A stretch of 57,162 nt of DNA from positions 33,859-91,020 of the forward strand of contig CAZLVJ010000001.1 of assembly GCA_964562935.1 (NCBI GenBank), written 5' to 3'. Made by a program: the position numbers and the translations under genes. The notes beneath the pieces were generated by a model, which was not told where the DNA came from, made no database searches, and saw nothing but the letters and a program-made list of their open reading frames with translations. Below, piece by piece: positions 3,560 through 48,938 of this stretch. Position 1 is the stretch's first letter; every line of letters begins with the position of its first letter. This DNA comes from an uncultured Nitrososphaerota archaeon (lineage in GTDB: Archaea; Thermoproteota; Methanomethylicia; Nezhaarchaeales; WYZ-LMO8).

Positions 3560-4702
3560 ATGTGGACCTTCGTCTCTCCACGAGTTATAGTTTTTGGCGA
3601 CGACGCCTTAACGTTCCTAGAAGGTGAGAAGGCAAGTAAAGTCCTGATAGTCACTGACGGGACTATCATAAAGCTGGGTTTCGTTGATGTAGTCAAGAAT
3701 AACATTAAGGCCGAGAGAATAGAGGTCTTCAGTGAGGTAGAGCCGGAACCCAGCATAGAAACGGTGCTTAAGTGTAGCGAGGTGGCGAGAGAGCTTCAGC
3801 CCGATTTGATAGTGGCGGTGGGCGGGGGAAGCGTCATGGACGTTGCCAAGGCCGCAAGAGTGCTAATGGAGGTCGACGTGGACCCCGTAGCGATAACGCC
3901 CTTCACGAACCTTTCAGAGTACGGTTACAAGAAGAAGGCGAAGCTGATAGCGATTCCGACAACTAGTGGGACGGGAGCGGATGCCACTTGGGCCATAGTC
4001 CTTACGGACAAGAAAGAGAGCAGAAAACTGACGCCAGCAAACAAAGAGCTTGTTCCAGACGTAACGATCCTCGATTACAGTCTCGTAACCAACATGCCCA
4101 AGAAGCTCGTATCGGGCACGGGCTTTGACGCGCTCACGCACGCCATTGAGGGCTACGTCTCGATTTGGAGAAACGACTTCAGCGACGCGCTGTGCGAAAA
4201 GGCCGTTGAGATGATACTGAGGAACCTCGAGAAGTCGTACAACGGCGATGTTGAGGCAAGGGCGAAAATGCACATAGCGGCGACGATGGCTGGCTTGGGC
4301 TTCGGGAACTCTCAGGTGGGACTGGCCCACTCGCTAGGTCACTCTTTTGGAGGAGTATTCAGGCTCCATCACGGACTTTGCGTGGGCGTATTCCTGCCGT
4401 ATGTAATGCAGTTCTACTTAAAGAGTGACGCCAAGGCTAGGATGGACTTTTTAGCGAGGAAGGTCGGGCTGGCCGATGCCGAAGACCTCATAGAGAAAAT
4501 AATGGCCCTGATGAAGAGCGTTGAAATGCCCACGAGGCTCTCGGAGATAATCACGAAGAAGGATTTCGACGAAAACTTAGAGAGGCTCATAATGAACACG
4601 ATGAACGACCCTAGCCTCGGGATGAGTCCAAGAGTACCTGACGTTGAGCAGACAAAAGCTATCTACCAATACGCCTTCGAAGGAAAGAGGATAGACTTCT
4701 AA
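3560..4702 (+). CDS. iron-containing alcohol dehydrogenase
   Basis: GGGSVMDVAKA nucleotide-binding motif and the metal-binding His cluster LAHSLGHSFGGVFRLHHG. 380 aa. Confidence 0.9.
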   Translation: MWTFVSPRVIVFGDDALTFLEGEKASKVLIVTDGTIIKLGFVDVVKNNIKAERIEVFSEVEPEPSIETVLKCSEVARELQPDLIVAVGGGSVMDVAKAARVLMEVDVDPVAITPFTNLSEYGYKKKAKLIAIPTTSGTGADATWAIVLTDKKESRKLTPANKELVPDVTILDYSLVTNMPKKLVSGTGFDALTHAIEGYVSIWRNDFSDALCEKAVEMILRNLEKSYNGDVEARAKMHIAATMAGLGFGNSQVGLAHSLGHSFGGVFRLHHGLCVGVFLPYVMQFYLKSDAKARMDFLARKVGLADAEDLIEKIMALMKSVEMPTRLSEIITKKDFDENLERLIMNTMNDPSLGMSPRVPDVEQTKAIYQYAFEGKRIDF

Positions 4703-27009: not shown

Positions 27010-27106
27010 CCCTGCTACCTCTCAAACGCTGGTAGACCTTCTTTGATCTCTGATCTTTAGGAAATATTTTTTGCGACCTTAAACCTCCTTCTCTTGGGGC
27101 GAGTAA

Positions 27107-27643
27107 ATGGTCGAGAACAGGTACGTCTTGTACAGCTTAACTGCCGGGACCATCGCCGGAGCCTTCTCGTCGGTGACGACGACCTTAATGCTTGGCGGCG
27201 CGATCGAGGACCTCATGCGCGAGCTGGTGCATCAGCAACTGTTATGGAGCGGCATACCTCAAGAGAAAATCCCCGAGATAGTTGCCAAAGCCGTAGAGTC
27301 CTTGAAGTGGACTTACTGGCTCATACCCCTAGGACCCATAATAAACATGTTGTTCCTCGGCGCTTTGCTCGGCTTGCTCTTGGACTTCTTAGTCAAGAAG
27401 CTTAGGAGACAGTACGTTGCCTCACTGCTGACCGGAACTGCCTTCGTAGTGTTGTTTCAATTGTTGCCACTACTATTGTTGGAAGCGGTCTACGGCTCGT
27501 GGTTCACCGAGCTCTTAAACAAGTATGTGGGGATGCCTCTAATGATCGCACCATCTGTGCTGTACACCGCGTTGCTAACGATCTTCAGCTCCGTTAAAGG
27601 TCCGTGGACTAGATGGGGCGAGGCAAAGCCGAAGATGTATTAA
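27107..27643 (+). CDS. hypothetical membrane protein (178 aa)
   Basis: ATG ORF with 4-5 hydrophobic helices. The overlapping frame 27094..27405 is Arg-rich and implausible. Confidence 0.55.
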   Translation: MVENRYVLYSLTAGTIAGAFSSVTTTLMLGGAIEDLMRELVHQQLLWSGIPQEKIPEIVAKAVESLKWTYWLIPLGPIINMLFLGALLGLLLDFLVKKLRRQYVASLLTGTAFVVLFQLLPLLLLEAVYGSWFTELLNKYVGMPLMIAPSVLYTALLTIFSSVKGPWTRWGEAKPKMY

Positions 27644-30231: not shown

Positions 30232-30402
30232 CGCGCTCGTTCTGTGAGGCCTCACGTTAACCATGAGGGCAAATCAGGGACTCTAGATACAATTCCCAAT
30301 GGCTTGCGCTATAGAGTTCGCTGACGTGCTATGGATGTGCTGTAAAAGTTTTTTAGTCTCTAAGCGTTAGAGGAGTGTCACGATTATTTGAGGTGCCAAG
30401 GG

Positions 30403-32607
30403 ATGGTGAAGTTCAAGCAGACTGAGGAGATCCTTAAGATCATGAGAAATCGTGAATTTGTCAGAAACATCGGTACCCTAGCTCATGTAGATCATGGTAA
30501 GACGACCCTCAGCGACAGTCTGTTGATGGCGGCCGGCATGATCTCTCCTAAAGTGGCTGGCAAGGCCTTAGCGCTCGATTATGTCGAGATAGAGCAGCTT
30601 AGGCAGATGACCGTTAAGGCTGCCAACGTGTCCCTATATCATGAGTGGGAAGGTAAGCCCTACGTCATTAACTTGGTCGACACCCCTGGCCACGTCGATT
30701 TTACAGGTCACGTGACTCGTAGCTTACGCGTTATGGACGGGGCCATTGTCGTGGTCGACGCCGTAGAGGGCGTCATGACCCAGACGGAGACTGTCGTCAG
30801 GCAAGCCATGGAGGAGCGCGTCAGGCCTCTCTTATACATCAACAAGGTCGACCGCTTGATTAAGGAGCTCAAGCTCAGCGCTAACGAGGTCCAGCAGAGG
30901 TTTGTGGGCATCATCAGAGACTTTAACGCTTTGATAGATCTATACGCCGATCCTGAGTTTAGGAATAACTGGAAGGTCGATCCAGCAAAGGGTCAAGTGG
31001 CTTTCGGCTCAGCCCTTCATAAGTGGGGTTTGACAATCCCCATCGCTCAGCAAAAGGGCGTAAGGTTCAGCTACATCGTCGACGCCTATGAGAGGGGTTA
31101 CTACGACAAGCTCGCTGAGGACTTCCCCCTCTACGCTGCCATCTTGGACATGGTTGTTGAGCACGTTCCCAACCCCGTGGAGGCCCAGAGATATCGACTT
31201 CCCAAGATTTGGAGGGGCGACCTCGACTCTCCCGTAGGTAAGGCAATGCTGAACTGTGACGACCAAGGTCCCCTGGTAGTATGCGTGAGCAAAGTCGTGG
31301 CCGACCCTCATGCTGGCTTAGTGGCGACAGGTCGTGTTTTTAGCGGAACGGTCGAAGAGGCTCGCGAGGTCTACTTGATGATGGCTAGAGCTACGGAGAG
31401 GATTACACAAGTCGGCCTCTACATGGGTCCTTATCGCGAGGTCTGCGAGAGCGTAACCGCTGGCAACATTGCCGCCATGCTCGGCTTGGAGCATGCTAGG
31501 GCTGGGGAGACGGTCATAGATCCCGCGCTGAAGGGTAGCATGATTCCATTCGAGAGGCTCCGCTACATTAGCGAGCCCGTCGTAACTATCGCCATCGAGC
31601 CCAAGAAGAGTAGCGACCTCCCGAAGCTCGTCGAGGCCCTCAGGAAGATGGCCATAGAGGATCCGACCCTCCACGTCAAGATAAACCAAGAGACGGGCGA
31701 GTACCTGATAGCTGGCATGGGCCAGCTCCATTTAGAGATAGCTCTTTGGGACCTCAAGCAGAGGACGGGGATTGAGGTCGTCACCTCCCCGCCCATAGTC
31801 GTTTATCGAGAAAGCATAAGGAAGAGCGTGGGTCCCTTCGAAGGCAAGTCTCCCAACAAGCACAACAGGGTCTACGTAGTCGTCGAGCCCCTGAACGAGG
31901 AGACTCTCCGCCTCTTGGAGATGGGCAAGATCTACGACGACCAGGACTGGCGCGAGCGTGCCAAGATCTTGAGGGAGGAAGCTGGCTGGGACGCCGACGA
32001 AGCTAGGGGTATATGGGCTATCGACGACTTCTTCAACATATTTGTCGACGCCACAAAAGGCGTCCAGTACTTAAGGGACGTCAAGGACACCCTGATCTCA
32101 GGGTTCAGATGGGCCTTGGCCGAAGGCCCCCTTTGCCATGAGCCTTGCCGTGGAGTCAAGGTTAAGCTGGTCGATGCCCTAATCCACGAAGACCCAGCCC
32201 ACCGCGGTCCGGCACAGCTCATGCCAGCCCTTCGAGACGCAACCTTCGCGGCCTTCTTGTCCGCTAGACCTACGCTTCTGGAGCCAGTCTTGAAGATCGA
32301 GGCCAAGTGCCCCGCCGACTACATATCTGGGCTGACTAGGGTATTGATGACTAGGCGCGGCAAGATCGCGAGCTTAGAGTCTCAGGAGCTACTAATGATT
32401 TTGAAAGGCGAGATCCCTGTCGCTGAGACCTTCGACCTAGCAAACGAAATTAGGAGCGCTACCGCTGGGCGTGCCTTTTGGGCCACAGAGTTCAAGGGTT
32501 GGCAACCCGTCCCAGAGTCCATGCTTCAGGACTTGATACTGAAGATACGTGAGAGGAAGGGCTTACCGAAGACTATTCCAAAGCCAGAGGACTTTATGCC
32601 CCTATAG
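30403..32607 (+). CDS. fusA: translation elongation factor aEF-2
   Basis: [18 protein letters not shown] and NKVDR G motifs, and the diphthamide loop HEDPAHRGPAQ. ATG 30403 has AGGTG 8 nt upstream, so the TTG 30388 extension is unlikely. Uninterrupted. Confidence 0.95.
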   Translation: MVKFKQTEEILKIMRNREFVRNIGTLAHVDHGKTTLSDSLLMAAGMISPKVAGKALALDYVEIEQLRQMTVKAANVSLYHEWEGKPYVINLVDTPGHVDFTGHVTRSLRVMDGAIVVVDAVEGVMTQTETVVRQAMEERVRPLLYINKVDRLIKELKLSANEVQQRFVGIIRDFNALIDLYADPEFRNNWKVDPAKGQVAFGSALHKWGLTIPIAQQKGVRFSYIVDAYERGYYDKLAEDFPLYAAILDMVVEHVPNPVEAQRYRLPKIWRGDLDSPVGKAMLNCDDQGPLVVCVSKVVADPHAGLVATGRVFSGTVEEAREVYLMMARATERITQVGLYMGPYREVCESVTAGNIAAMLGLEHARAGETVIDPALKGSMIPFERLRYISEPVVTIAIEPKKSSDLPKLVEALRKMAIEDPTLHVKINQETGEYLIAGMGQLHLEIALWDLKQRTGIEVVTSPPIVVYRESIRKSVGPFEGKSPNKHNRVYVVVEPLNEETLRLLEMGKIYDDQDWRERAKILREEAGWDADEARGIWAIDDFFNIFVDATKGVQYLRDVKDTLISGFRWALAEGPLCHEPCRGVKVKLVDALIHEDPAHRGPAQLMPALRDATFAAFLSARPTLLEPVLKIEAKCPADYISGLTRVLMTRRGKIASLESQELLMILKGEIPVAETFDLANEIRSATAGRAFWATEFKGWQPVPESMLQDLILKIRERKGLPKTIPKPEDFMPL

Positions 32608-39342: not shown

Positions 39343-40110
39343 TCAAAGCTGGAAAAAGCTCTTCGAGTTCGAGTACAACACCTCGTATGTTTCGTTTAAG
39401 TCTATCTTCTTGATCTCAGCTATCTTAGTGGCCGAGATCACCACGTTTGAGGGCTCGTTCCTCTTCCCCGGCTCGGGGCCTAGTACGGGGGCGTCGCTCT
39501 CGACCATCAAGTACTCTATGGGGATGGACTTCACAAGCTTGACCTTTTGCTGAGACCTCATTACTGAAGGAGGTATCGAGAACATGAAGCCCCTAGAAAC
39601 GCCTTTTAAGGCCCATCCGCTGCTTCCATCGAAGGCGTGCATCAGAACCCTATCATAGCCCTCTTTTGCTATGACCTCGATGGCATACTTCCCAGCACTC
39701 CTTGAGTGAACTATTAAAGGTAGCTTCAACTCCGAGGCTACGTTGATCCAGAACCTAAAGATCTCGACTTGTCTTTCTCGCTCTCCTCCTTTCACGTAAA
39801 AGAAGTCTAAGCCTACCTCTCCTATGGCCACAATTTTGTCGCGAAGCCTCTTTATTTCACGAGCGACCCCTTCCGCGTCGATCGCTGAGAGGTTCAACGG
39901 GTCAAACCCAGCTGACACCCTAACGCAACCATACTTCTTGGCTATACTCAACGCCTTCTCTAACTCTCGCATGTTTAGCGCAGAGGTGATGATGATTTCA
40001 ACACCGCTATTCAGAGCCCTTTCTACGACCTCGTCTCTGTCGCCGTCAAAGACCTCATCGTGTAAGTGACAATGGACGTCAATAAACCTTGGCCCTCCTC
40101 TCCTCGACAT
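39343..40110 (-). CDS. tatD: TatD-family metal-dependent hydrolase
   Basis: FIDVHCHL N-terminal motif, AIGEVGLDF, HSR, and MVESDAP near the C-terminus. Confidence 0.9.
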   Translation of the reverse strand: MSRRGGPRFIDVHCHLHDEVFDGDRDEVVERALNSGVEIIITSALNMRELEKALSIAKKYGCVRVSAGFDPLNLSAIDAEGVAREIKRLRDKIVAIGEVGLDFFYVKGGERERQVEIFRFWINVASELKLPLIVHSRSAGKYAIEVIAKEGYDRVLMHAFDGSSGWALKGVSRGFMFSIPPSVMRSQQKVKLVKSIPIEYLMVESDAPVLGPEPGKRNEPSNVVISATKIAEIKKIDLNETYEVLYSNSKSFFQL

Positions 40111-40747
40111 ACCTCCCTCTCCTCCTTATCTCTTGGACTTTCTTCAAGACCCTCTCTACTCTAGCGCCCACGACCTCTCTATAACCTCTCAAGAATTCTT
40201 CGAAGAACTCCTTTACCTTGTTGTAGTGAGTGCTCTCGAGGGCTCTCAGCATTAAGTGCACGTCTGTCCCTATGGCCTCTAATTCCCCAGTTCTTTCTGC
40301 TAGACCGAAGTCTACGAAGAACGGCTTCTCAGTCTCAGGGACGACTATGTTTGCGGGGGTTAAGTCTCCGTGGACTATGTGGTTGACATGCATCTTGCCG
40401 ACGTAAAAACCGACCAACCTAAAGAGAGAAGCAACGTCGTAGCCTCCTAAGGCTAGTTCCTTTAGGGTCGGCCCGGGCACATATTCCATTATTATGACTC
40501 CCTCCTCTGGGTCTACGTCGTATATAGCTGGGACTGGGACGCCGCACATCCTAGCGTGGAACATCATTGTGACCTCATGAGAGGTCCTAGCCTTCCGGAT
40601 GTAGTCGTCGAGTTCCTTGGCTCTATATGGCTTTGGAACCCTCTTCTTTAATATCGCTGGCAAGCCCAAGAAGTCTATTAAGTAGAGCTCTGCCTCAGCG
40701 CCCTTCTTTATCATCTGCCCCTTGAATCCAAGGTATATCGACTTCAT
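40079..40747 (-). CDS. bud32: Bud32 / Kae1-associated kinase (KEOPS subunit)
   Basis: IKKGAEAELY, HGDLTPANI and FVDFGLA atypical-kinase motifs. Maximal ORF shown. Met 40714 (MIKKGAEA) is an alternative start. Confidence 0.85.
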   Translation of the reverse strand: MKSIYLGFKGQMIKKGAEAELYLIDFLGLPAILKKRVPKPYRAKELDDYIRKARTSHEVTMMFHARMCGVPVPAIYDVDPEEGVIIMEYVPGPTLKELALGGYDVASLFRLVGFYVGKMHVNHIVHGDLTPANIVVPETEKPFFVDFGLAERTGELEAIGTDVHLMLRALESTHYNKVKEFFEEFLRGYREVVGARVERVLKKVQEIRRRGRYVEERRAKVY

Positions 40748-41711
40748 CGAGCCTCCACCTAGGCCTCACGTAACTCTTCTCTACCTCTATTGTAACCCCA
40801 TGCGTGTAGGCGAGTACGCCAGTCCAAGCTATCATGGCGCCGTTATCTCCAGCAAGATCTTTGGGCACAACTCCAAACTTAGCGCCATGCTCTCTTGCTA
40901 TCATCTCCAGCTTTCTCTGAAGCTCGTTGTTGACCGCCACCCCGCCAGTTAACACGAGCTCCTCCTTCTCAGTGTAGGCCAGAGCTCTCTCAACCACTTC
41001 AGCTAACATTGAGAATGCGTACTCTTGCAAGCTATAGCACAGGTCCTCAATCTTGTGGCCCTCTCTCAAGAGCCTAATGGCGGCGGTTAGAAGTCCCGAG
41101 TACGACACGTCTTGTCCTTTAACTATATAAGGTAACTTAAGCAACTTTTCCCCTCTTTTTGCAAGCTCTTCGACCCTAGGTCCGCCTGGGTGGGGCAAGC
41201 CAGCTTCTCTGGCAAACGTATCGAGTAGATTGCCAAGCGCTATGTCGAGCGTCTCTCCGAACACTCTGTACCTTCCATCCGAGTACGCTGCTATTATCGT
41301 GTTACCTCCTGAGACGAAGACTATCAGGGGATCCTTGAAACCTGTCGTGAGCTTAGCCACCTCTATGTGCGCGACGGCGTGGTTTACTGGGACTAGCGGC
41401 TTGTTATAAGCAACAGCCAGCGCTCTGGCTATGGTGGCGCCGACTCTGAGGCAAGGTCCCAGACCAGGCCCCAAGGAGACTGCTATGGCGTCTATGTGCT
41501 CCAAATCAAGCTTGGCCTCAGCCAGAGCCTTCCTAATGACCTTAGGGGCCACGTCGGAGTGATGCTGAGAGCTCTCCCTAGGATGTATACCTCCCTTAGT
41601 GGGGATGTACGTATCGTTGACATTCGCTAAAACGCTACCATCGGAGTCGACTATCCCACATCCAAAGGTGTGCGCCGTAGACTCTATGCCTAACACGACT
41701 ACCTTGCGCAA
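40695..41711 (-). CDS. kae1: Kae1, tRNA N6-adenosine threonylcarbamoyltransferase (KEOPS catalytic subunit)
   Basis: LGIESTAHTFG, GIHPRE..HH, SLGPGLGPCLRVG and the NHAVAHIE metal site. Confidence 0.95.
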   Translation of the reverse strand: MRKVVVLGIESTAHTFGCGIVDSDGSVLANVNDTYIPTKGGIHPRESSQHHSDVAPKVIRKALAEAKLDLEHIDAIAVSLGPGLGPCLRVGATIARALAVAYNKPLVPVNHAVAHIEVAKLTTGFKDPLIVFVSGGNTIIAAYSDGRYRVFGETLDIALGNLLDTFAREAGLPHPGGPRVEELAKRGEKLLKLPYIVKGQDVSYSGLLTAAIRLLREGHKIEDLCYSLQEYAFSMLAEVVERALAYTEKEELVLTGGVAVNNELQRKLEMIAREHGAKFGVVPKDLAGDNGAMIAWTGVLAYTHGVTIEVEKSYVRPRWRLDEVDIPWIQGADDKEGR

Positions 41712-41725
41712 CGATCATCCTCCAG

Positions 41726-42043
41726 TTACTTTTCGCTTTTCTCTCCTCCCCTTTTTCCGAAGTTCCTGGCCTTTATATACTGAGGCTCGACCTCCTGCAG
41801 CGCCTTCTCATCTCTATACACATGAACATGGGCTTCTGTAACGTTAGTCCCAGCGATAGTCTTTAAGCTCTTGATCACTATAAGGTTTTGAGGGGCGCTA
41901 AACATCGAAGACACGAGCTCCCTCACCTCACCTCTTGTAGGCGTTCTAGCGCCAGCGTGGTGTATCCGTAGGATTAGCTCCCTCCTATTTAGGACCTTGT
42001 TTTCTACGTCTCTCAACACTTTAACTTGGTATTGTAGCATCAT
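41726..42043 (-). CDS. rps24e: 30S ribosomal protein S24e
   Basis: N.LL.RRE....I.H.G..TP.R.EVRE pattern. 105 aa. Confidence 0.9.
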   Translation of the reverse strand: MMLQYQVKVLRDVENKVLNRRELILRIHHAGARTPTRGEVRELVSSMFSAPQNLIVIKSLKTIAGTNVTEAHVHVYRDEKALQEVEPQYIKARNFGKRGGEKSEK

Positions 42044-42581
42044 CGAGCTCTACCTCCATCATAGACATTAGCAGTTCTTTAGCCTTCTCCTTTTTATCTT
42101 TATCCACCTTTATCAGCACTACCCCAACACCTGGCTGACCGTAAGCTACTATCGCCCCTTCAGGCAAAGCAAGTATTGAGGGTATTACCAATAGGTCCTC
42201 TTCCCCCCTTACTACTACGAGCCCTCCTTCTTCAAGCGCTTTGCCTATCTCCTCTACCATCGTGGAAACTATGTGACCCGGAGGGTTTACCACTTCACAT
42301 ACCACTCTCATGCATTTTTTTAAATCGACCTGATAGGGCCCTCTCAGGGTCCTCATATCGATTATCGCTACTCTAGGCTTTAGCCCCCTCTTGAGAAACG
42401 TATAAGTAGTCACGTCCCCTACCGTTACAACCAGGTCAGCCCTCATGCCCTCTAATGTTTCTTCTAATTTCCCTGACTCTACCTCGTTGTTCGTGATCAC
42501 TAGACCCCAAGGCCTGCTAAGATCTCTCCTAAGCTCTTCACTGACTTTAAAAGCCTTGAGTCTCAAAGCCTTCACCTGCAT
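42021..42581 (-). CDS. DUF359 family, GTP-dependent dephospho-CoA kinase
   Basis: VTVGDVTT motif, 186 aa, and the conserved position between spt4 and rps24e. Confidence 0.75.
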   Translation of the reverse strand: MQVKALRLKAFKVSEELRRDLSRPWGLVITNNEVESGKLEETLEGMRADLVVTVGDVTTYTFLKRGLKPRVAIIDMRTLRGPYQVDLKKCMRVVCEVVNPPGHIVSTMVEEIGKALEEGGLVVVRGEEDLLVIPSILALPEGAIVAYGQPGVGVVLIKVDKDKKEKAKELLMSMMEVELDDATIPS

Positions 42582-42781
42582 TTAATGGCGTATCTACCAG
42601 GCTTTGTCAGGTTCAAGGTCTTGGCGATAACAGAGTTTTCGGGGTCGAAGACTATGACGATGCCGCTCCAGTCAGACGTGAACTCGCTCGATTTGCAGTT
42701 AGGACATATACTCGCTTGAGTTAGGAGAAGAGTTTTACACCTCAAGCAGCACTTGAATCGAGCCGAAGTCCTCTTGCTCAC
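42572..42781 (-). CDS. spt4: transcription elongation factor Spt4 (RpoE'')
   Basis: Zn ribbon CLRC...CPNC, then W.G.V.V.DPE.S.IA. The GTG 42781 start overlaps the rpoE' TGA stop (GTGA) and has AAGGAGAG just upstream. Confidence 0.85.
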   Translation of the reverse strand: MSKRTSARFKCCLRCKTLLLTQASICPNCKSSEFTSDWSGIVIVFDPENSVIAKTLNLTKPGRYAIKCR

Positions 42782-43356
42782 CTCTCCTTCACCTTGGCAG
42801 GAGCCTTCTCCTTTTTCAGATCTTCCGCGATCCACTCCAACTTCCCTAGAAACGGTTGCCTCATAGTCAAGCCGACCTTGACGTCGCTCAACCTCATTCC
42901 GGTCATGCTAACGGTCACGACCCTGGCTCTCACGCTATCACCCTTCGAGAGCTTTCTCCTAGTCTGCTTGCACAGGAGCTCGCTCTTCTTCTTGTCGTAG
43001 GATATGTAATCGTCTGCCACTTGAGATATGTGGACCAGTCCGTCTATTGGTCCTATTCTCACGAAGGCCCCAAAGTCCACCACTTCCACTACCTCTCCTT
43101 CCACTACCTCTCCCTCCGCGGGGGCGTAGACTAGGGCCTCGAACCTAACCTTGTGATAGCTCGCGCCGTCCCCGGGCACTATTTTACCTACGGGAGAGAC
43201 CTTCACTCCCAATATCGCGACTATTATCCCGAGACCCTTTATTACTACTCCCTCATACGTGGACCTCAGGCTGTCGAACGCGACGTCTTCGAGCTTCTCG
43301 TTAAATCTGCTGGGCGGGATCCTAACCTCGTCCGAAATAGTGGCCAAGTAATACAT
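42778..43356 (-). CDS. rpoE: DNA-directed RNA polymerase subunit E' (Rpo7)
   Basis: N-terminal Rpb7 fold (MYYLATISDEVRIPP) and a C-terminal S1 domain (GEVVEGEVVEVVDFGAFVRIGPIDGLVHISQ). Confidence 0.92.
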   Translation of the reverse strand: MYYLATISDEVRIPPSRFNEKLEDVAFDSLRSTYEGVVIKGLGIIVAILGVKVSPVGKIVPGDGASYHKVRFEALVYAPAEGEVVEGEVVEVVDFGAFVRIGPIDGLVHISQVADDYISYDKKKSELLCKQTRRKLSKGDSVRARVVTVSMTGMRLSDVKVGLTMRQPFLGKLEWIAEDLKKEKAPAKVKER

Positions 43357-43442
43357 GATTTTCCACCATGAGGTTAAATGCTGAGCGCCGTGTGAGTTTA
43401 GAGACCTTGTACCTTTTTGTATTAAACTTTTTGTAAAACAGG

Positions 43443-43862
43443 TTAAGGCTGGTAGCCTTCTAGCTCAAACCTGCCATCGCCCTTCATGTACACGACGCTT
43501 ACGCCGCCTTCTCTCAACCTTCGCCTTAACCTCCTATCGTTTGTCGCGACTACGTAGCCCTCTCTCCTAGAGATCTTGACTATAACGTCGTCGACTGCCC
43601 CCTCGCCATCCTCAACGACTTCAAACCCCCCTTTCTTCACGTACTCTAGGACAGCGCGAGCTATTCGAGCGGCCTTTCGTCTCTTGTCGGAGCTCGCCAT
43701 CCTCTCAAGCTCTCGAAGTTGCGCTCTCAGGATGACTGGCCTGACCTTGGTCTCAAGCAACCCTTCAACTCTCTCAACAACATTTATGGGCCTCTCAAAA
43801 ATAGCCATCAAGAAGTTTGTGTCGAAGAGCACCTTAGTTGCGATTTTGCCTCCACTCCTCAC
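43443..43862 (-). CDS. PIN-domain protein (Fcf1/COG1412-like)
   Basis: VLFDTNFLM and VATNDRRLRRRL motifs. The GTG start overlaps the aIF2-gamma TGA stop. Conserved position between eif2g and rpoE'. Confidence 0.8.
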   Translation of the reverse strand: MRSGGKIATKVLFDTNFLMAIFERPINVVERVEGLLETKVRPVILRAQLRELERMASSDKRRKAARIARAVLEYVKKGGFEVVEDGEGAVDDVIVKISRREGYVVATNDRRLRRRLREGGVSVVYMKGDGRFELEGYQP

Positions 43863-45148
43863 CTGATTATTCCGTACCCTATGAGCCTAAACCTGCCGGA
43901 TATCTGGCGACTTATCGCTACTCTAGTTCCTGGCTCTGCGCATACTGGCCTACGTAGCTTCACCGAGACTACGTCTTTAGAGGCCTTAGCGACTATCCCT
44001 AGAGTAGTGGCCGTGCCAACGTTTATCATCAAGGTCTCGTTGGCTCTTATGTTCTCGACCTTAACCATGTCTACTGTTCCCACAGCTCTTTCAAACAGCA
44101 CGACTTCTAGGTCAAGCTCCGAGAGCGTTGGAGGGAGCGTGCCGGGCTTGCCCACGACGCTACCAGCTAAGGCGTCTGCTTTCGTGAGTGAGGGGTCTAG
44201 AAGTGTACCAATGCCTATCAACCCTCCGGGTTTAGCCTCTTCTACGCTTACATCGCCAGCCTTTAGGCTCACTATTTGAGTGTACAACGGCTCGTACTCG
44301 ACCCTCCCGCCTCCTTTCTCTATCCTGACGCCGGGTCTTATCTCGACCTCGTCGCCCACCCTGGCAACACCTTGGATTATAGAGCCTCCTAAGACCCCAC
44401 CTCTTAGTTCTTCGGGCGGCGTCCCAGGCTTGTTGACGTCAAAGGACCTAGCTATCAGCGCTCTCAAAGGCTTTGACGGATCCCTTTTTGGTGTCGGGAT
44501 GGTCTTCTCTATGACCTCGACCAAGACATCAAGGTTTGCTCTATGGAGGGCAGAGATCGGAATTATTGGCGCATCCCTGTACATGGTTTCTCTCAAGAAC
44601 TCCCTTATCTGACGATAGTTCTCAATGACCTTATCTCTCGGAGCGACCTCTATCTTATTTTGTACCACCACCACGTTTCTGACCCCCATTATTTCGAGGG
44701 CCTTCAAGTGCTCTCGCGTCTGAGGCTGAGGACACGGAGCTGTAGCGTCGATCACCAATATGGCTCCGTCAAATAGCGTAGCCCCTGCGAGCATAGTTGC
44801 CATCAACATATCACGTTGCACGCCCGTTTATGGGCGTGCAATTTCGTGTCCGGGACAGTCCACGAACGAGTACTTCCTCAAGAACTCAAGCTTAGACCCG
44901 CAGTGCTTGCAAGTAGTCCCCGAGAGCGCGTAAGTTGTATAACATTGAGGAGGCGGGCATTTGGGGCACTTCAAGACCGTGGTGTCGGCGTAACCCAGCC
45001 TAAGTGTTATCCCCCTTCTCAATTCCTCGGAGTGCCTTGAAGCCCATACTCCCGAGAGGGCCCACGTCAAGGTCGTCTTGCCGTGGTCTACGTGACCCGT
45101 CGTGCCTATGTTCAGCTCAGCCTGCTTTTTCATCCACCCCTCAACCAT
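43859..45148 (-). CDS. eif2g: translation initiation factor aIF2 gamma subunit, interrupted by a 33-nt predicted intron (exons 45148..44843 and 44809..43859, 418 aa after splicing)
   Basis: [10 protein letters not shown], a 4-Cys zinc knuckle, DCPGHE then in-frame TAA, then [19 protein letters not shown]. The two track ORFs (44828..45148 and 43859..44821) are in the same frame. The start could also be Met 45133. Confidence 0.9.
44810..44842 (-). other. predicted 33-nt BHB/BHL-type mRNA intron in aIF2-gamma
   Basis: 4-bp helix CACG/CGUG, flanked by a 3-nt bulge AAA and AUA, plus a perfect 10-bp inner hairpin with loop AUAAAC containing the UAA stop. Excision restores PGHE-M-LMATML. Confidence 0.65.
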
Positions 45149-45494
45149 GTTTAATCGCCTTCTCCTCGTACTTTATGACCATGTTTATTTGAACTATATC
45201 GTCAGATATAGTGTTTCCCCGAACGAGCTTCCTCTTCCTCAAACCCCTCTTCTTGGGCCTAAAGCCGGGTCCTTGGCTCAATAACAGCCTCCGCTTAACG
45301 GGTCCTGGGAGGTCAGGCCTCATGGGTGCTCCACTTCTATCGCTCCCACCTCTAATCACTAACTTAACTCCTGGCATTCCAAGCAACGCGCCGTCCACTT
45401 CATCTCCTATCCTAAGCCCTATTAGGGCACTCGCTTGAGGCCCGCTGACGGTTACCTGCTTAGCCTTTCCGGTCGCTGGATCAGATATGACCAC
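45141..45494 (-). CDS. rps6e: 30S ribosomal protein S6e
   Basis: VISDP.TGKA.Q..V and GG.D..G.PMR motifs. GTG start, with no upstream in-frame start available. Confidence 0.9.
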
Positions 45495-45572
45495 TTTGAA
45501 TTCAGGCGTTCTTTTTCACCCCTTAGCGTGAACACACTTCACGAGTTAGCTAAAAACTTTGAGGTCTTTAAA

Positions 45573-47393
45573 TCAATACCTGCCAGCAATCCTCTTTATC
45601 TTAGTGATTTCATCGATGAGCTCCAGCTCCTCTCTTGACAACTGATCAGAGAACTTCTCCTTCAATACTCTCACATGTTCTAAGGGTACGTCAACGTACA
45701 GGTAATCGCCTTCGTCGACATGTCTACCAACAATTACGTCCCCCTTAATAGATATCGCGACGGCTTGCCCTGCCACGGCCTCACTTAAGCTCTTTTTCTG
45801 TTCTTGTATCTGCATTATCACCCCAACCCTTCTGCCCTTAGCGTTAATCAATGGATACCCGGGCCTTAGCCTCCCGGCCAATACTTCGACTCCGACTATC
45901 GCCGGGTCGCTCCTTCTGAATACGTAGCCCTTTAAGATACGGGCCTTCCCGGGCAAGATTAGGGAGGATAGCGTCTGCCTGCGATCCTCTTCCATTTTCT
46001 TCTTGACCCAAGCTAAGTAGTCCTCTATCAGCCTGTAAATGACATTGTTTTTAAACACCGGTATGTTCCTACTCTCTATCTCTTGCTCTGCGTCGGGGCT
46101 CGTACTAACGTTGAACGCTAAGATGACGCCGTGGTAGGGGTCCTTATCTCTCGTTATCGCGGCTTCGACGACGTCCCTCTTCGATATCTTTCCGACGTCA
46201 GCCAACCTCACTGGCACGCCTAGCTCCTGTAGCTTCGACACCAATGCCTCAAGGGATCCCAAGGTATCGGCTTTAACCACAACCCCTATGACGTCAGTCG
46301 TTATCCTGATCTTCGAGAGCTCCTCTGACACCCTCTTTACCGCTTCCTCGATTTCAGCTTGATCCCTCGCTGAGAAAAGAGGGCTACCAGCCACGGCGTC
46401 GTCGAGGCCATGGGCAACGACTCTTACGCCAGCGGCTGCGACGACCTCGTCCACGCTCTTGAACTTGTCCTCCGGGTCCCTCATCTCGTCCATGGGCTTG
46501 GGCATTAATATGCTCCTGATCTTGGTCACTATGGGACCTTTGAGCCCGCCGAGCACTATTGTGTCATCCTTTCTTAGTACGCCATCGTAAATTATCACGT
46601 CCACGACGTTGCCCAAGCCCGGGATCTCTCTGCACTCTAGCACCACGCCCTTAGCCGTCGCCTCCTCGACGTAGAGCCTCTTCAACATGTACCTCTGAGA
46701 CAGGCCGGCCAAGACGAGCAAGAGGTCTGGTACGCCCTCTCCCGTCTTAGCGCTTGTGGGTATTATGGCCACTGTTCTGGCGAAGTCTCTTATTCTGTCG
46801 TACCTGTCGGCTTGAAAGCCAAGCTCCTCAAACTTGGCCACGATGTTGTAGATGAGCTCGTCGAGCCTCCTCTGGACCTGAGGCGGCTGAGACTTTATTG
46901 TCTCAACGAACGGCTTGAACTCGTTCTCAACCCACCCAGGTATTTTGTCTATCTTGTTCGCGGCAACGACAAAGGGCGTTTTCCTAGCCTTTAAGATCTC
47001 CAAGCACTCGTAGGTTATCTCCTCAAAACCTTCGAGAACGTCTATGACCAAGATGGCCATGTCGGCTATCGAGCCGCCCCTCTTCCTCAAGTTCACGAAG
47101 GCCTCGTGTCCTGGAGTGTCTATGACCAAGAAGCCAGGTATCTTGATTTCAACCTTTATGCTCTTGAGTAGCGGACCGCAAATCCTCTCGAGAGCTGACC
47201 ACGGTAAGAAAGAAGCCCCAATGTGTTGGGTTTGCCACGTAGCGCCTGCTTGGCGCTACATCATGGCCCCAACCTCTTTAAACATAATCGCAGTGCCCCT
47301 GATCTTGTCCAGAAGAAGGGTCTTTCCTACATCTACGTGCCCTAGCACGCACAGAATGGGCGATCTGATTCTCTTGCTCTCACCACTGCTCAA
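45573..47393 (-). CDS. infB: translation initiation factor aIF5B (IF2 homologue), interrupted by a 30-nt predicted intron (exons 47393..47262 and 47231..45573, 596 aa after splicing)
   Basis: Exon 1 reads [26 protein letters not shown]...KEVGAM. Exon 2 reads TQHIGAS...[14 protein letters not shown], and onward. TTG 47393 has GAGGAGGTGA upstream. The track ORF 45573..47129 lacks the P-loop. Confidence 0.92.
47232..47261 (-). other. predicted 30-nt canonical bulge-helix-bulge mRNA intron in aIF5B
   Basis: hBHBh' structure: 6-bp outer helix, AAA bulge, 4-bp helix GCCA/UGGC, UGA bulge, 9-bp inner helix, 5-nt loop. Contains an in-frame UAG. Excision restores KEVGAMTQHIGA. Confidence 0.75.
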
Positions 47394-47473
47394 TTTACAA
47401 TCACCTCCTCTAATAAGTCAGCTTGATGAAAAAGCTAGGTAGGAGAATACTCTTTAACTTGTCGTTTCAAAGC

Positions 47474-47926
47474 TTAAAGCCACGCCTCGTCAGCCCGTGA
47501 GTAAGCACAAAGCTCCTTCTCCTCGAAGAAGATCTTTATCTCCCTCTCAGCGCTCTCCCTGCTATCCGACGCGTGGATTATGTTTTGTGTGATTGAGATC
47601 CCGAAGTCGCCTCTGATCGTTCCGGGGGGCGCCTCCTTTGGGTTTGTCGGGCCTATGACCCTCCTAACGACTTGAATAGCATCGTCGCCCTCTACGACCC
47701 CCACGACTACTGGGGCCGAAGTAATGTAATTGATCAGCTCCTCGTAGAAGTGCTTGCCCTTGTGCACCGAGTATAGCTCTTCTGCCTTCTCTCTCGAAAT
47801 CTTCAACATCTTCAAGCCCACTATCTTCAAGCCCTTCTTCTCAAGCCTCGATAACACCTCTCCTACGAGGCCTCTTACAACGGCTCCGGGCTTGACTATT
47901 ATCAACGTCCTCTCAACGACCATCAC
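47474..47926 (-). CDS. ndk: nucleoside diphosphate kinase
   Basis: [12 protein letters not shown], YxxHxGKxFY and the NIIHASDS active-site His. Confidence 0.95.
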
Positions 47927-48120
47927 TTGTACACCTTCCTAGTCTTCTTGCACCACTTTAGCTTAGCAGGATTTCTCCTCAGCTTCAACATGTTCTTCTT
48001 GCACTTGCTTGAACAGAAGTACAATATTGTCCCGTCGTTCTTGACGAACATAAGCCCGGTTCCGGGCGGGACCTCTTTCCCACAAAACGTGCATGAAATC
48101 GTCTTGAACATTTTGAGCAC
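47923..48120 (-). CDS. rpl24e: 50S ribosomal protein L24e
   Basis: [31 protein letters not shown] zinc-ribbon motif. Confidence 0.92.
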
Positions 48121-48236
48121 CGCCTTTAGTGAGTCGCCATGCCCATCTTATAACCCTTATCTCGTCTAGGACGAGGTCGAAGCGAGGGGAGAGGTTTATC
48201 AGTCAGCCTCTGAGGCCTAAGTAATAGGTGCACATC

Positions 48237-48458
48237 ATGAGCTCTGGCTCGACTCAAGACGCGACGCCTGCGGAAGTGGTCCAAATAATCGGCAGGACGG
48301 GGGTTACTGGAGAGGTAATCCAAGTCAGGTGCAGGATTCTTGAGGGGCCCGATAAGGGCAGGATTTTGACGAGGAACGTCAAAGGCCCTGTAAGAATTGG
48401 CGACATATTGATGCTTCGAGAAACAGAAAGAGAGGCGAGGAAGCTCACTCCGCGGTGA
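48237..48458 (+). CDS. rps28e: 30S ribosomal protein S28e (inverted relative to neighbours)
   Basis: [57 protein letters not shown] 48237 has AGGTG 6 nt upstream. Confidence 0.92.
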
Positions 48459-48479
48459 TTTAGAAAACTTACTAGTGAC

Positions 48480-48938
48480 TTATTTCTTCCTTTCTTTCTT
48501 GACCTCTTTCTTAGCTGGTGCCGCCTTCTCTTCCGCTACCACTACTGGCGTCGTGGGCAAGCCAGCCTTGGCCTTTATCTCATTGACCTTAGCCACTATC
48601 TCTTCTACGAGCTCCTTAGCCTGTCCTGCCTCAATTATGGTCGCCGAGGCAGCCTTAACCTCGATCCCAGCCGCCTGCCCTAATTTTTCTTTGCTCGGCA
48701 CGTAGACGTATGGTATTTTTCTCTCTTCGCATAGCAATGGCAAGTGCATCACCACTTCGGGAGGGTCAACGTCCTCAGCTATTAGCACAAGCTTCGCCAG
48801 CCCTCTCTCAACGGCCTTGGTCGTCTCATTAGTTCCCTTCTTTATCTTGCCAGTCTCTCTAGCAATCTTCAAGGCCTCGTAGGCTTTTTCAGCGAGCTCC
48901 GGCGGCACCTCAAACCTAACGTAGCTTGGCTTAGGCAT
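48480..48938 (-). CDS. rpl7ae: 50S ribosomal protein L7Ae with about 25-aa Lys/Ala/Pro-rich C-terminal extension
   Basis: [45 protein letters not shown]. The extra tail is [26 protein letters not shown]. Confidence 0.92.

Follow-up and report, generated by a model that had tools for sequence, protein, structure and literature searches.

The DNA analysed here, referred to as the window, is a 57,162-nucleotide (nt) stretch of contig CAZLVJ010000001.1 from an uncultured hot-spring archaeon of the Nitrososphaerota (GTDB lineage Nezhaarchaeales). The genes of two translation initiation GTPases, aIF5B and the gamma subunit of aIF2 (aIF2-gamma), lie on its minus strand about 2.4 kb apart, with aIF2-gamma downstream, and each is interrupted by a short insert. 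An initial annotation of the window had proposed that the aIF5B insert is a mini-intron with the bulge-helix-bulge (BHB) structure cut by the archaeal tRNA-splicing endonuclease; the aIF2-gamma insert had been missed there. We consider it very probable that both inserts are archaeal BHB introns inside protein-coding mRNAs, and both hairpins almost certainly must be cut from the mRNA before a working protein can be made. The features of the two genes are listed below (ORF, open reading frame).

45573-47393, minus strand: aIF5B gene, encoding an aIF5B/IF2-type GTPase
47401..47410, minus strand: Shine-Dalgarno-like GAGGAGGTGA, 5' of the aIF5B TTG start, read from the sequence
47262..47393, minus strand: aIF5B exon 1 (TTG start, P-loop GHVDVGKT, through ...KEVGAM; 44 codons)
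47225..47273, minus strand: canonical hBHBh' motif of aIF5B, 49 nt, from fold and covariation
47232..47261, minus strand: predicted aIF5B BHB mini-intron, 30 nt, with in-frame UAG 47258-47256; its removal restores the ORF, and homologous inserts were found
45573..47231, minus strand: aIF5B exon 2 (TQHIGAS... through the stop codon), from the ORF, spliced product and structure alignment
44843..45148, minus strand: aIF2-gamma exon 1 (MVEGW... through ...DCPGHE), Pfam GTP_EFTU positions 4-80 of 188
44808..44849, minus strand: relaxed BHB (HBh') motif of aIF2-gamma, fold of -23.3 kcal/mol, z = -3.2
44810..44842, minus strand: predicted aIF2-gamma BHB mini-intron, 33 nt, with in-frame UAA 44830-44828; its removal restores the ORF
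43859..44809, minus strand: aIF2-gamma exon 2 (MLMATML... through the stop codon), Pfam GTP_EFTU 85-187 of 188, GTP_EFTU_D2 and eIF2_C

The aIF5B insert

From its start codon, TTG 47393-47391, the aIF5B frame forms an ORF of 45 amino acids (aa) that is closed by the in-frame UAG at 47258-47256. The frame stays open past this stop, and the first later ATG, GTG or TTG is TTG 47129, the start of a 518-aa ORF; the initial annotation had placed all of these positions correctly. Exon 1 aligns with residues 11-53 of A. pernix aIF5B (structure 5fg3). Around the stop, the helices, bulges and loop previously drawn for a 49-nt BHB were confirmed. An outer helix of 6 bp (GUUGGG 47273-47268 with CCCAAC 47230-47225) is followed by a central helix of 4 bp (GCCA 47267-47264 with UGGC 47237-47234), which is flanked on opposite strands by the 3-nt bulges UGA 47263-47261 and AAA 47233-47231, and an inner helix of 9 bp (47260-47252 with 47246-47238) is closed by the loop AAGCA.

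The cut position within each bulge was taken from the geometry of tRNA introns at position 37/38. Excision of 47261..47232, exactly 30 nt (ATGTAGCGCCAAGCAGGCGCTACGTGGCAA), gives an in-frame protein of 596 aa that reads KEVGAM|TQHIGAS, as had been proposed; the predicted junction is GAGGTTGGGGCCATG|ACCCAACACATTGGGGC after splicing and ...GCCATGATGTAGCGCC... before it. This protein aligns end to end and gap-free with A. pernix aIF5B 5fg3 (E = 1e-216), and at the junction KEVGAMTQHIGAS faces KEAGGITQHIGAS of 5fg3, in agreement with the earlier claim that the spliced product matches aIF5B there in both sequence and length.

For the 49-mer, the folding energy is -29 kcal/mol (z = -5.7), and none of 200 shuffled sequences is as stable; the motif is also the top-scoring strict BHB of the whole window. 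The canonical 4-bp register assigned to it was only partly reproduced by RNAfold: it is the optimum at 70 C, but at 37 C it lies 0.5 kcal/mol above an optimum with a 5-bp central helix, which arises through a sliding U47263.G47238 pair. In two related genomes (L016 and L024), the canonical register of the orthologous motif is the optimum at both temperatures, and in a third (L007) the 4-bp central helix and the 3-nt bulges are kept at both 37 and 70 C with one additional inner pair. The outer and central helices are formed by exon codons, the V-G-A codons (GUUGGGGCC) before the junction pairing with the T-Q-H codons after it (47262-47273, 47225-47231), and therefore the coding sequence seems co-adapted to the RNA structure. 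Before the junction, intron-bearing lineages read E-V-G-A-M, and intron-less relatives read E-P-G-T-M or E-A-G-G-I/M.

The aIF2-gamma insert

The aIF2-gamma gene, on the same strand as aIF5B, occurs as two separate ORFs (106 and 320 aa), whose GTP_EFTU matches cover complementary halves of that profile. A relaxed BHB stands directly after DCPGHE. Its 4-bp central helix pairs CACG 44848-44845 with CGUG 44815-44812, its bulges are AAA 44844-44842 and AUA 44811-44809, and its inner helix of 10 bp pairs 44841-44832 with 44825-44816 (UUGCACGCCC/GGGCGUGCAA). Both the aIF5B and the aIF2-gamma motif thus carry two opposite 3-nt bulges exactly 4 bp apart, the arrangement expected of a substrate of the tRNA-splicing endonuclease EndA, and the strict hBHBh' form with flanking helices is present in aIF5B (6-bp outer, 9-bp inner). 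The same cutting rule excises 44842..44810 (33 nt) from aIF2-gamma and gives a protein of 418 aa reading GHE|MLMATML, with the predicted spliced junction TGTCCCGGACACGAA|ATGTTGATGGCAACT. Aligned with P. abyssi aIF2-gamma 1kk0, the spliced protein shows no gap at the junction (E = 9e-170).

Conservation, length variation and covariation

The comparative set comprised 38 aIF5B loci from GTDB species genomes and JGI metagenomes, the closest of which belong to Candidatus Nezhaarchaeota/Nezhaarchaeales genomes from hot-spring and hydrothermal metagenomes. In 25 of these loci, which belong to Nezhaarchaeota and to a sister lineage, aIF5B has an insert at the identical codon boundary; 16 distinct sequences occur, that of the window included. 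The 13 more distant loci with a readable junction all lack it, and 12 of these 13 read ...ATG|AC(C/T/A)... exactly at the predicted junction, the ATG|ACC form among them, so that the inspection of orthologous loci bore out the excision proposed at first. The aIF2-gamma insert is kept in 26 related loci, and the loci without it (L007/L027, L009, L010 and L029-L031) read GHE|MLMATM, with GAG|ATG at the junction.

That the genes are pseudogenes, or the inserts errors of sequencing or assembly, is extremely unlikely. The sequences come from metagenome-assembled genomes, and one related aIF5B gene (L039) does contain an isolated in-frame TAA at low coverage, but the same inserts recur in these 25 (aIF5B) and 26 (aIF2-gamma) loci, in independent assemblies from several studies, which answers the concern that the 30 nt might be an assembly artefact. 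Each gene is essential and is present only once in the window. Exons and intron helices alike are under purifying selection. In the coding sequence around the aIF5B insert, variation affects 33 of 40 third codon positions but 11 of 80 at the first and second positions. Within the Nezhaarchaeota clade, 11 of 25 helix and bulge sites of the aIF5B intron are variable, against the same 33 of 40 flanking third-codon positions (p = 0.002), and for the aIF2-gamma intron the helix sites vary at 5 of 27, against 35 of 40 synonymous flanking sites (p = 2e-8). Because the inserts recur in independent assemblies and are under purifying selection, both the artefact and the pseudogene were excluded.

The inserts differ in length. 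Those in aIF5B are mostly 30 nt long, with 33 nt in L003 and L037 and 29 nt in L005 and L024, and those in aIF2-gamma measure 32, 33 or 35 nt, with the length variation entirely in the loop; each of the two introns shows 11 different loop sequences among the loci. In the two 29-nt genomes, exons 1 and 2 of aIF5B are in different frames, and a shared sequencing error was excluded because the loops differ (TCGA and TTAA). At least nine distinct aIF2-gamma sequences with inserts of 32 or 35 nt likewise have their exons out of frame. Every variant of either gene contains an in-frame stop or a frameshift; in aIF5B each variant has an in-frame stop at a variable position, either UAG in the inner helix or UAG/UAA across the central helix and the 3' bulge. 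Excision between bulge nucleotides 2 and 3 restores the frame in the 29-, 32- and 35-nt variants as well. On sequence grounds, the length variants (29 nt in aIF5B; 32 and 35 nt in aIF2-gamma) prove that the insert is untranslatable, and in the 29-nt lineages a functional aIF5B could arise only through excision at the bonds that the BHB predicts.

These variants also bear on whether the ribosome itself might deal with the insert, either by skipping the hairpin in a hop like those of T4 gene 60 and the yeast mitochondrial byp elements, or by reading through the stop. With its stop one codon past the junction, the stable hairpin does resemble the gene 60 take-off site, and some aIF2-gamma variants have equal codons before the insert and at its end (GAA/GAA or GAG/GAG), but the pair in the window is GAA/GAU, and in aIF5B the take-off codon AUG faces CAA, UAG or UAA as the last intron codon, with no landing match. 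Readthrough would not repair the 29-, 32- and 35-nt variants and in the 30-nt form would add 10 residues in switch I. The conserved 3-nt bulges and 4-bp spacing are not needed for bypassing. We therefore regard such recoding as very improbable.

The pairing itself is conserved. In nine aIF5B orthologues, 94.7% of cells are paired, against 30-39% with slid partners. Compensatory changes were found for aIF5B: six of the nine inner-helix pairs have changed on both sides, and the observed covariation score was reached by none of 500 shuffles. The pair adjoining the central helix is U.G, U-A, A-U or C-G depending on the lineage, and L007 has a wholly different inner helix (CCCGGCAGG/CCUGCCGGG) of unchanged length. 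In aIF2-gamma, 98.5% of cells are paired across 13 variants. The initial interpretation of the aIF5B insert as a BHB intron is thus supported by conservation, by compensatory changes, by the complete helix replacement in L007 and by the frames of the 29-nt forms.

A split gene, whose N- and C-terminal parts would be made as separate polypeptides and assemble as in some split genes of Nanoarchaeum, would leave much of this unexplained, namely the BHB geometry at a break within the G domain, the covariation and the exact match of the junction to intron-less orthologues. Possible start codons in frame with exon 2, a GTG and an ATG, do stand right at the 3' end of the aIF2-gamma insert. Neither putative restart is preceded by a Shine-Dalgarno sequence, however, and aIF5B has no start for 43 codons past the stop, so that a C-terminal protein made on its own would be missing switch I and the residues after it. 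There is very little chance that the genes are split in this way.

Other candidate introns and phylogenetic distribution

In a search of the whole window for BHB inserts that, once taken out, mend an interrupted ORF, aIF5B and aIF2-gamma ranked first and second by a wide margin; the remaining ORF-restoring matches were weak and were dismissed as gene-boundary noise. Pfam annotation of all other large ORFs in the window revealed no further split gene. Neither hairpin recurs elsewhere in the window or in the five related loci that were examined for copies, ARAGORN found no tRNA gene in the window or in 23 related loci, and no Rfam match reached the gathering threshold in the window. A group I or group II self-splicing intron was rejected, since the insert has only 30 nt and the core of such introns several hundred, and the window has no Rfam match. 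The same search in the flanks of the related loci brought up an insert in the gene of the proteasome alpha subunit PsmA. These results concern two further features.

30388-32607, plus strand: aEF2, the third translational GTPase gene of the window, intact, 739 aa
L008 12951-12976 (same contig as L028), plus strand: PsmA insert, 26 nt, relaxed BHB (HBh'), from the ORF-restoring BHB search of related-locus flanks

Locus L008 belongs to the Thermoprotei genome B12_G16, a metagenome-assembled genome of a sister lineage without an aIF5B insert. Its PsmA insert has the form UACG[AUA]-8 bp hairpin-CGUA[AAA], and removal gives GYD|RAITIFSPDGRLYQVEYA and a product that aligns gap-free with archaeal PsmA 6he5 (E = 2e-78). 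With this insert, predicted BHB mini-introns in protein genes extend beyond the two GTPases and beyond Nezhaarchaeota. The rule of cutting between bulge nucleotides 2 and 3 was validated in all three genes, since the junctions it predicts are the ones seen in intron-less orthologues.

In a neighbour-joining tree of aIF5B, the aIF5B intron marks one clade, formed by Nezhaarchaeota and L007, and the aIF2-gamma intron marks a Nezhaarchaeota subclade alone, so that a single gain would suffice for each of the two introns on this tree.

Since aEF2 is intact, introns are not a general feature of the GTPase genes here. Of the window's three genes for translational GTPases, two contain introns and aEF2 does not, both introns lie at switch motifs of the G domain, the unspliced message is non-productive in every variant, and the intron helices are under strong purifying selection; these facts would fit regulated splicing, in which the introns serve as a switch and the output of aIF5B and aIF2-gamma is set by EndA and RtcB activity or by temperature-dependent folding. 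Such an archaeal analogue of the unconventional splicing of HAC1/XBP1 would refine the explanation as BHB introns and does not exclude it. The insert in a proteasome gene of a sister lineage, however, is more readily understood as opportunistic insertion into conserved genes than as part of a translation-specific design, and no regulatory role is known for the cbf5 intron (PMC7714728). Regulation of this kind seems unlikely to us.

Several other candidates were set aside. Matches at L005 1505-1529 and L010 8574-8640 are false positives, the former linking adjacent genes for isopentenyl phosphate kinase and an FMN-dependent dehydrogenase and the latter an unrelated gene to MCM. The aIF5B gene of L039 (P0001), which is 80% identical over the N-terminal 144 aa, has a second interruption after ...KIPGW, but here a single in-frame TAA (4427-4429) replaces one codon and nothing is inserted; the ENA contig has about 4x coverage, and the TAA probably reflects a sequencing error or recoding and not an intron. 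A 28-nt BHB-like hairpin at 27377-27404 on the plus strand, with a 3-bp outer and a 6-bp inner helix, is probably due to chance. Its removal would fuse ORF 27094-27405 with the C-terminal part of the overlapping ORF 27107-27643, and neither ORF has a Pfam match.

The two interrupted genes lie in a conserved information-processing cluster (40079-48938, minus strand) with L7Ae, L24e, NDK, aIF5B, S6e, aIF2-gamma, a PIN-domain protein, Rpo7, DUF359, S24e, Kae1 and Bud32. If the cluster is co-transcribed, both introns would be carried on one polycistronic precursor.

Proposed splicing pathway and known systems

Starting from the structures, their conservation and covariation, the exact junctions and the frames observed above, we propose a plausible pathway, in which the enzymology and the existence of a spliced RNA are supplied by analogy with the splicing of tRNA and cbf5. 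The gene would be transcribed with its insert, and the RNA would fold into the 4-bp helix between two 3-nt bulges, stabilised by the inner hairpin and, in aIF5B, helped by the further 6-bp helix built from exon codons. EndA would then cleave between bulge nucleotides 2 and 3 on both strands, and an RtcB-type ligase would join the exons, the 30- or 33-nt intron probably being circularised. Full-length aIF5B (596 aa) or aIF2-gamma (418 aa) would be encoded by the spliced mRNA only. On unspliced mRNA, translation would terminate at the intron stop codon or soon after the frameshift, and no GTPase with a damaged switch region would be made.

Several points weigh against this explanation. BHB geometry by itself is not convincing, because about 0.4 strict BHBs with at least 15 flanking pairs are expected per shuffled window on both strands, against one observed; what makes the aIF5B motif significant is that it coincides exactly with the ORF break, together with its conservation, the frame data and the covariation. 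The outer helix of aIF2-gamma has about 1 bp, hence the relaxed HBh' and not the strict hBHBh' form, and no covariation was detected among the 13 variants of this motif, because its helices are nearly invariant. EndA and RtcB are not among the Pfam-annotated large ORFs of the window. Among 5.8 billion predicted proteins, no near-identical one reads across the aIF5B junction when the spliced N-terminus is used as query, a weak negative given that these proteins are mostly genomic predictions; annotated aIF5B relatives, such as P0080 ("IF-2, partial"), start downstream of the insert. Finally, transcription and translation are coupled in archaea; a ribosome would unfold the part of the motif that lies in the exons, and splicing would have to win this competition by a means that the explanation does not supply.

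The closest precedent is the cbf5 intron of Crenarchaeota (Watanabe 2002; Yoshinari 2006; Yokobori 2009, PMC2738675), in which EndA cleaves the pre-mRNA at a BHB-like structure (PMC2738675). It too is a short insert with a BHB-like boundary in a conserved housekeeping gene of a TACK archaeon, is removed by EndA, and shows a patchy distribution from gain and loss. The host genes differ, being aIF5B, aIF2-gamma and, in the sister lineage, PsmA here, and so do the hosts, Desulfurococcales and Sulfolobales in the case of cbf5 and Nezhaarchaeota and relatives in ours. The splicing of cbf5 was demonstrated by experiment, whereas here it is deduced from sequence; the aIF5B motif is a fully canonical hBHBh'. 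A BHB consists of a 4-bp helix with a 3-nt bulge at either end (PMC6379350; PMC5829648), and EndA of the TACK-type (alpha-beta)2 form cleaves relaxed motifs with broad specificity (PMC5829648); this form was linked to cbf5 pre-mRNA splicing (Yoshinari 2006). The relaxed aIF2-gamma and PsmA motifs would be consistent with such specificity.

With the archaeal tRNA intron at 37/38, the inserts share an identical geometry, in which the outer helix is continuous with the 4-bp helix, the 3-nt bulges are opposite and the cut falls after bulge nucleotide 2, and the intron sizes are in the same range. The exons here are codons, in contrast, and a tRNA-like domain is lacking (ARAGORN and Rfam negative). 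The HVO_1309 intron of Haloferax volcanii (PMC7714728) is, besides cbf5, another mRNA substrate of EndA, but it lies in a 5'-untranslated region (5'-UTR) and so interrupts no reading frame. In HAC1/XBP1 splicing, which is carried out by IRE1 and a tRNA ligase (RtcB), a short intron is likewise removed from a coding mRNA independently of the spliceosome by paired cuts in stem-loops and joining by a tRNA ligase, and the protein made is changed; IRE1, however, cuts 7-nt loops, and HAC1/XBP1 splicing is a regulated stress switch.

Implications

According to a 2020 study, cbf5 was the only BHB intron reported outside tRNA and rRNA, apart from the 5'-UTR intron of that study itself (PMC7714728), and a 2025 paper still cites the cbf5 work alone. 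The statement in the initial annotation that cbf5 is the sole known protein gene with a BHB intron agrees with the literature we searched. No report of introns in aIF5B, aIF2-gamma, PsmA or Nezhaarchaeota was found in full-text literature, in which few subscription journals were covered, so earlier publication is possible. As judged from the sequence comparisons, the inserts are real and new cases of the archaeal pre-mRNA BHB intron class, whose mechanism class was already known. They would raise the known BHB-intron protein host genes from one to four, by two initiation GTPases and a sister-lineage proteasome subunit, after more than 20 years in which cbf5 was the sole archaeal protein gene reported to need BHB splicing in its coding sequence, and would extend the phenomenon to a new phylum-level group.

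Gene callers present these essential genes as truncated, "partial" or missing (P0080 being an example), which distorts functional annotation, and completeness estimates based on marker genes may be affected. The aIF5B and aIF2-gamma introns are cleanly dated, each by a single gain on the tree, and could help to show by what route BHB introns enter coding sequence and how codons of the exons become fitted to a recognition helix. EndA and RtcB would act on mRNA more than has been assumed, and the capacity for translation initiation may be tied to tRNA-splicing activity.

Three host genes (aIF5B, aIF2-gamma and PsmA) were found from very little sequence. We tentatively raise the possibility, which we hold with less than even confidence, that Nezhaarchaeota and neighbouring uncultured TACK lineages harbour an entire population of BHB mini-introns, 26-35 nt long, in conserved protein genes. 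If so, endonuclease-dependent mRNA splicing would be a routine step of gene expression in these archaea, and the synthesis of core translation and proteolysis factors would be coupled to the tRNA-splicing machinery.

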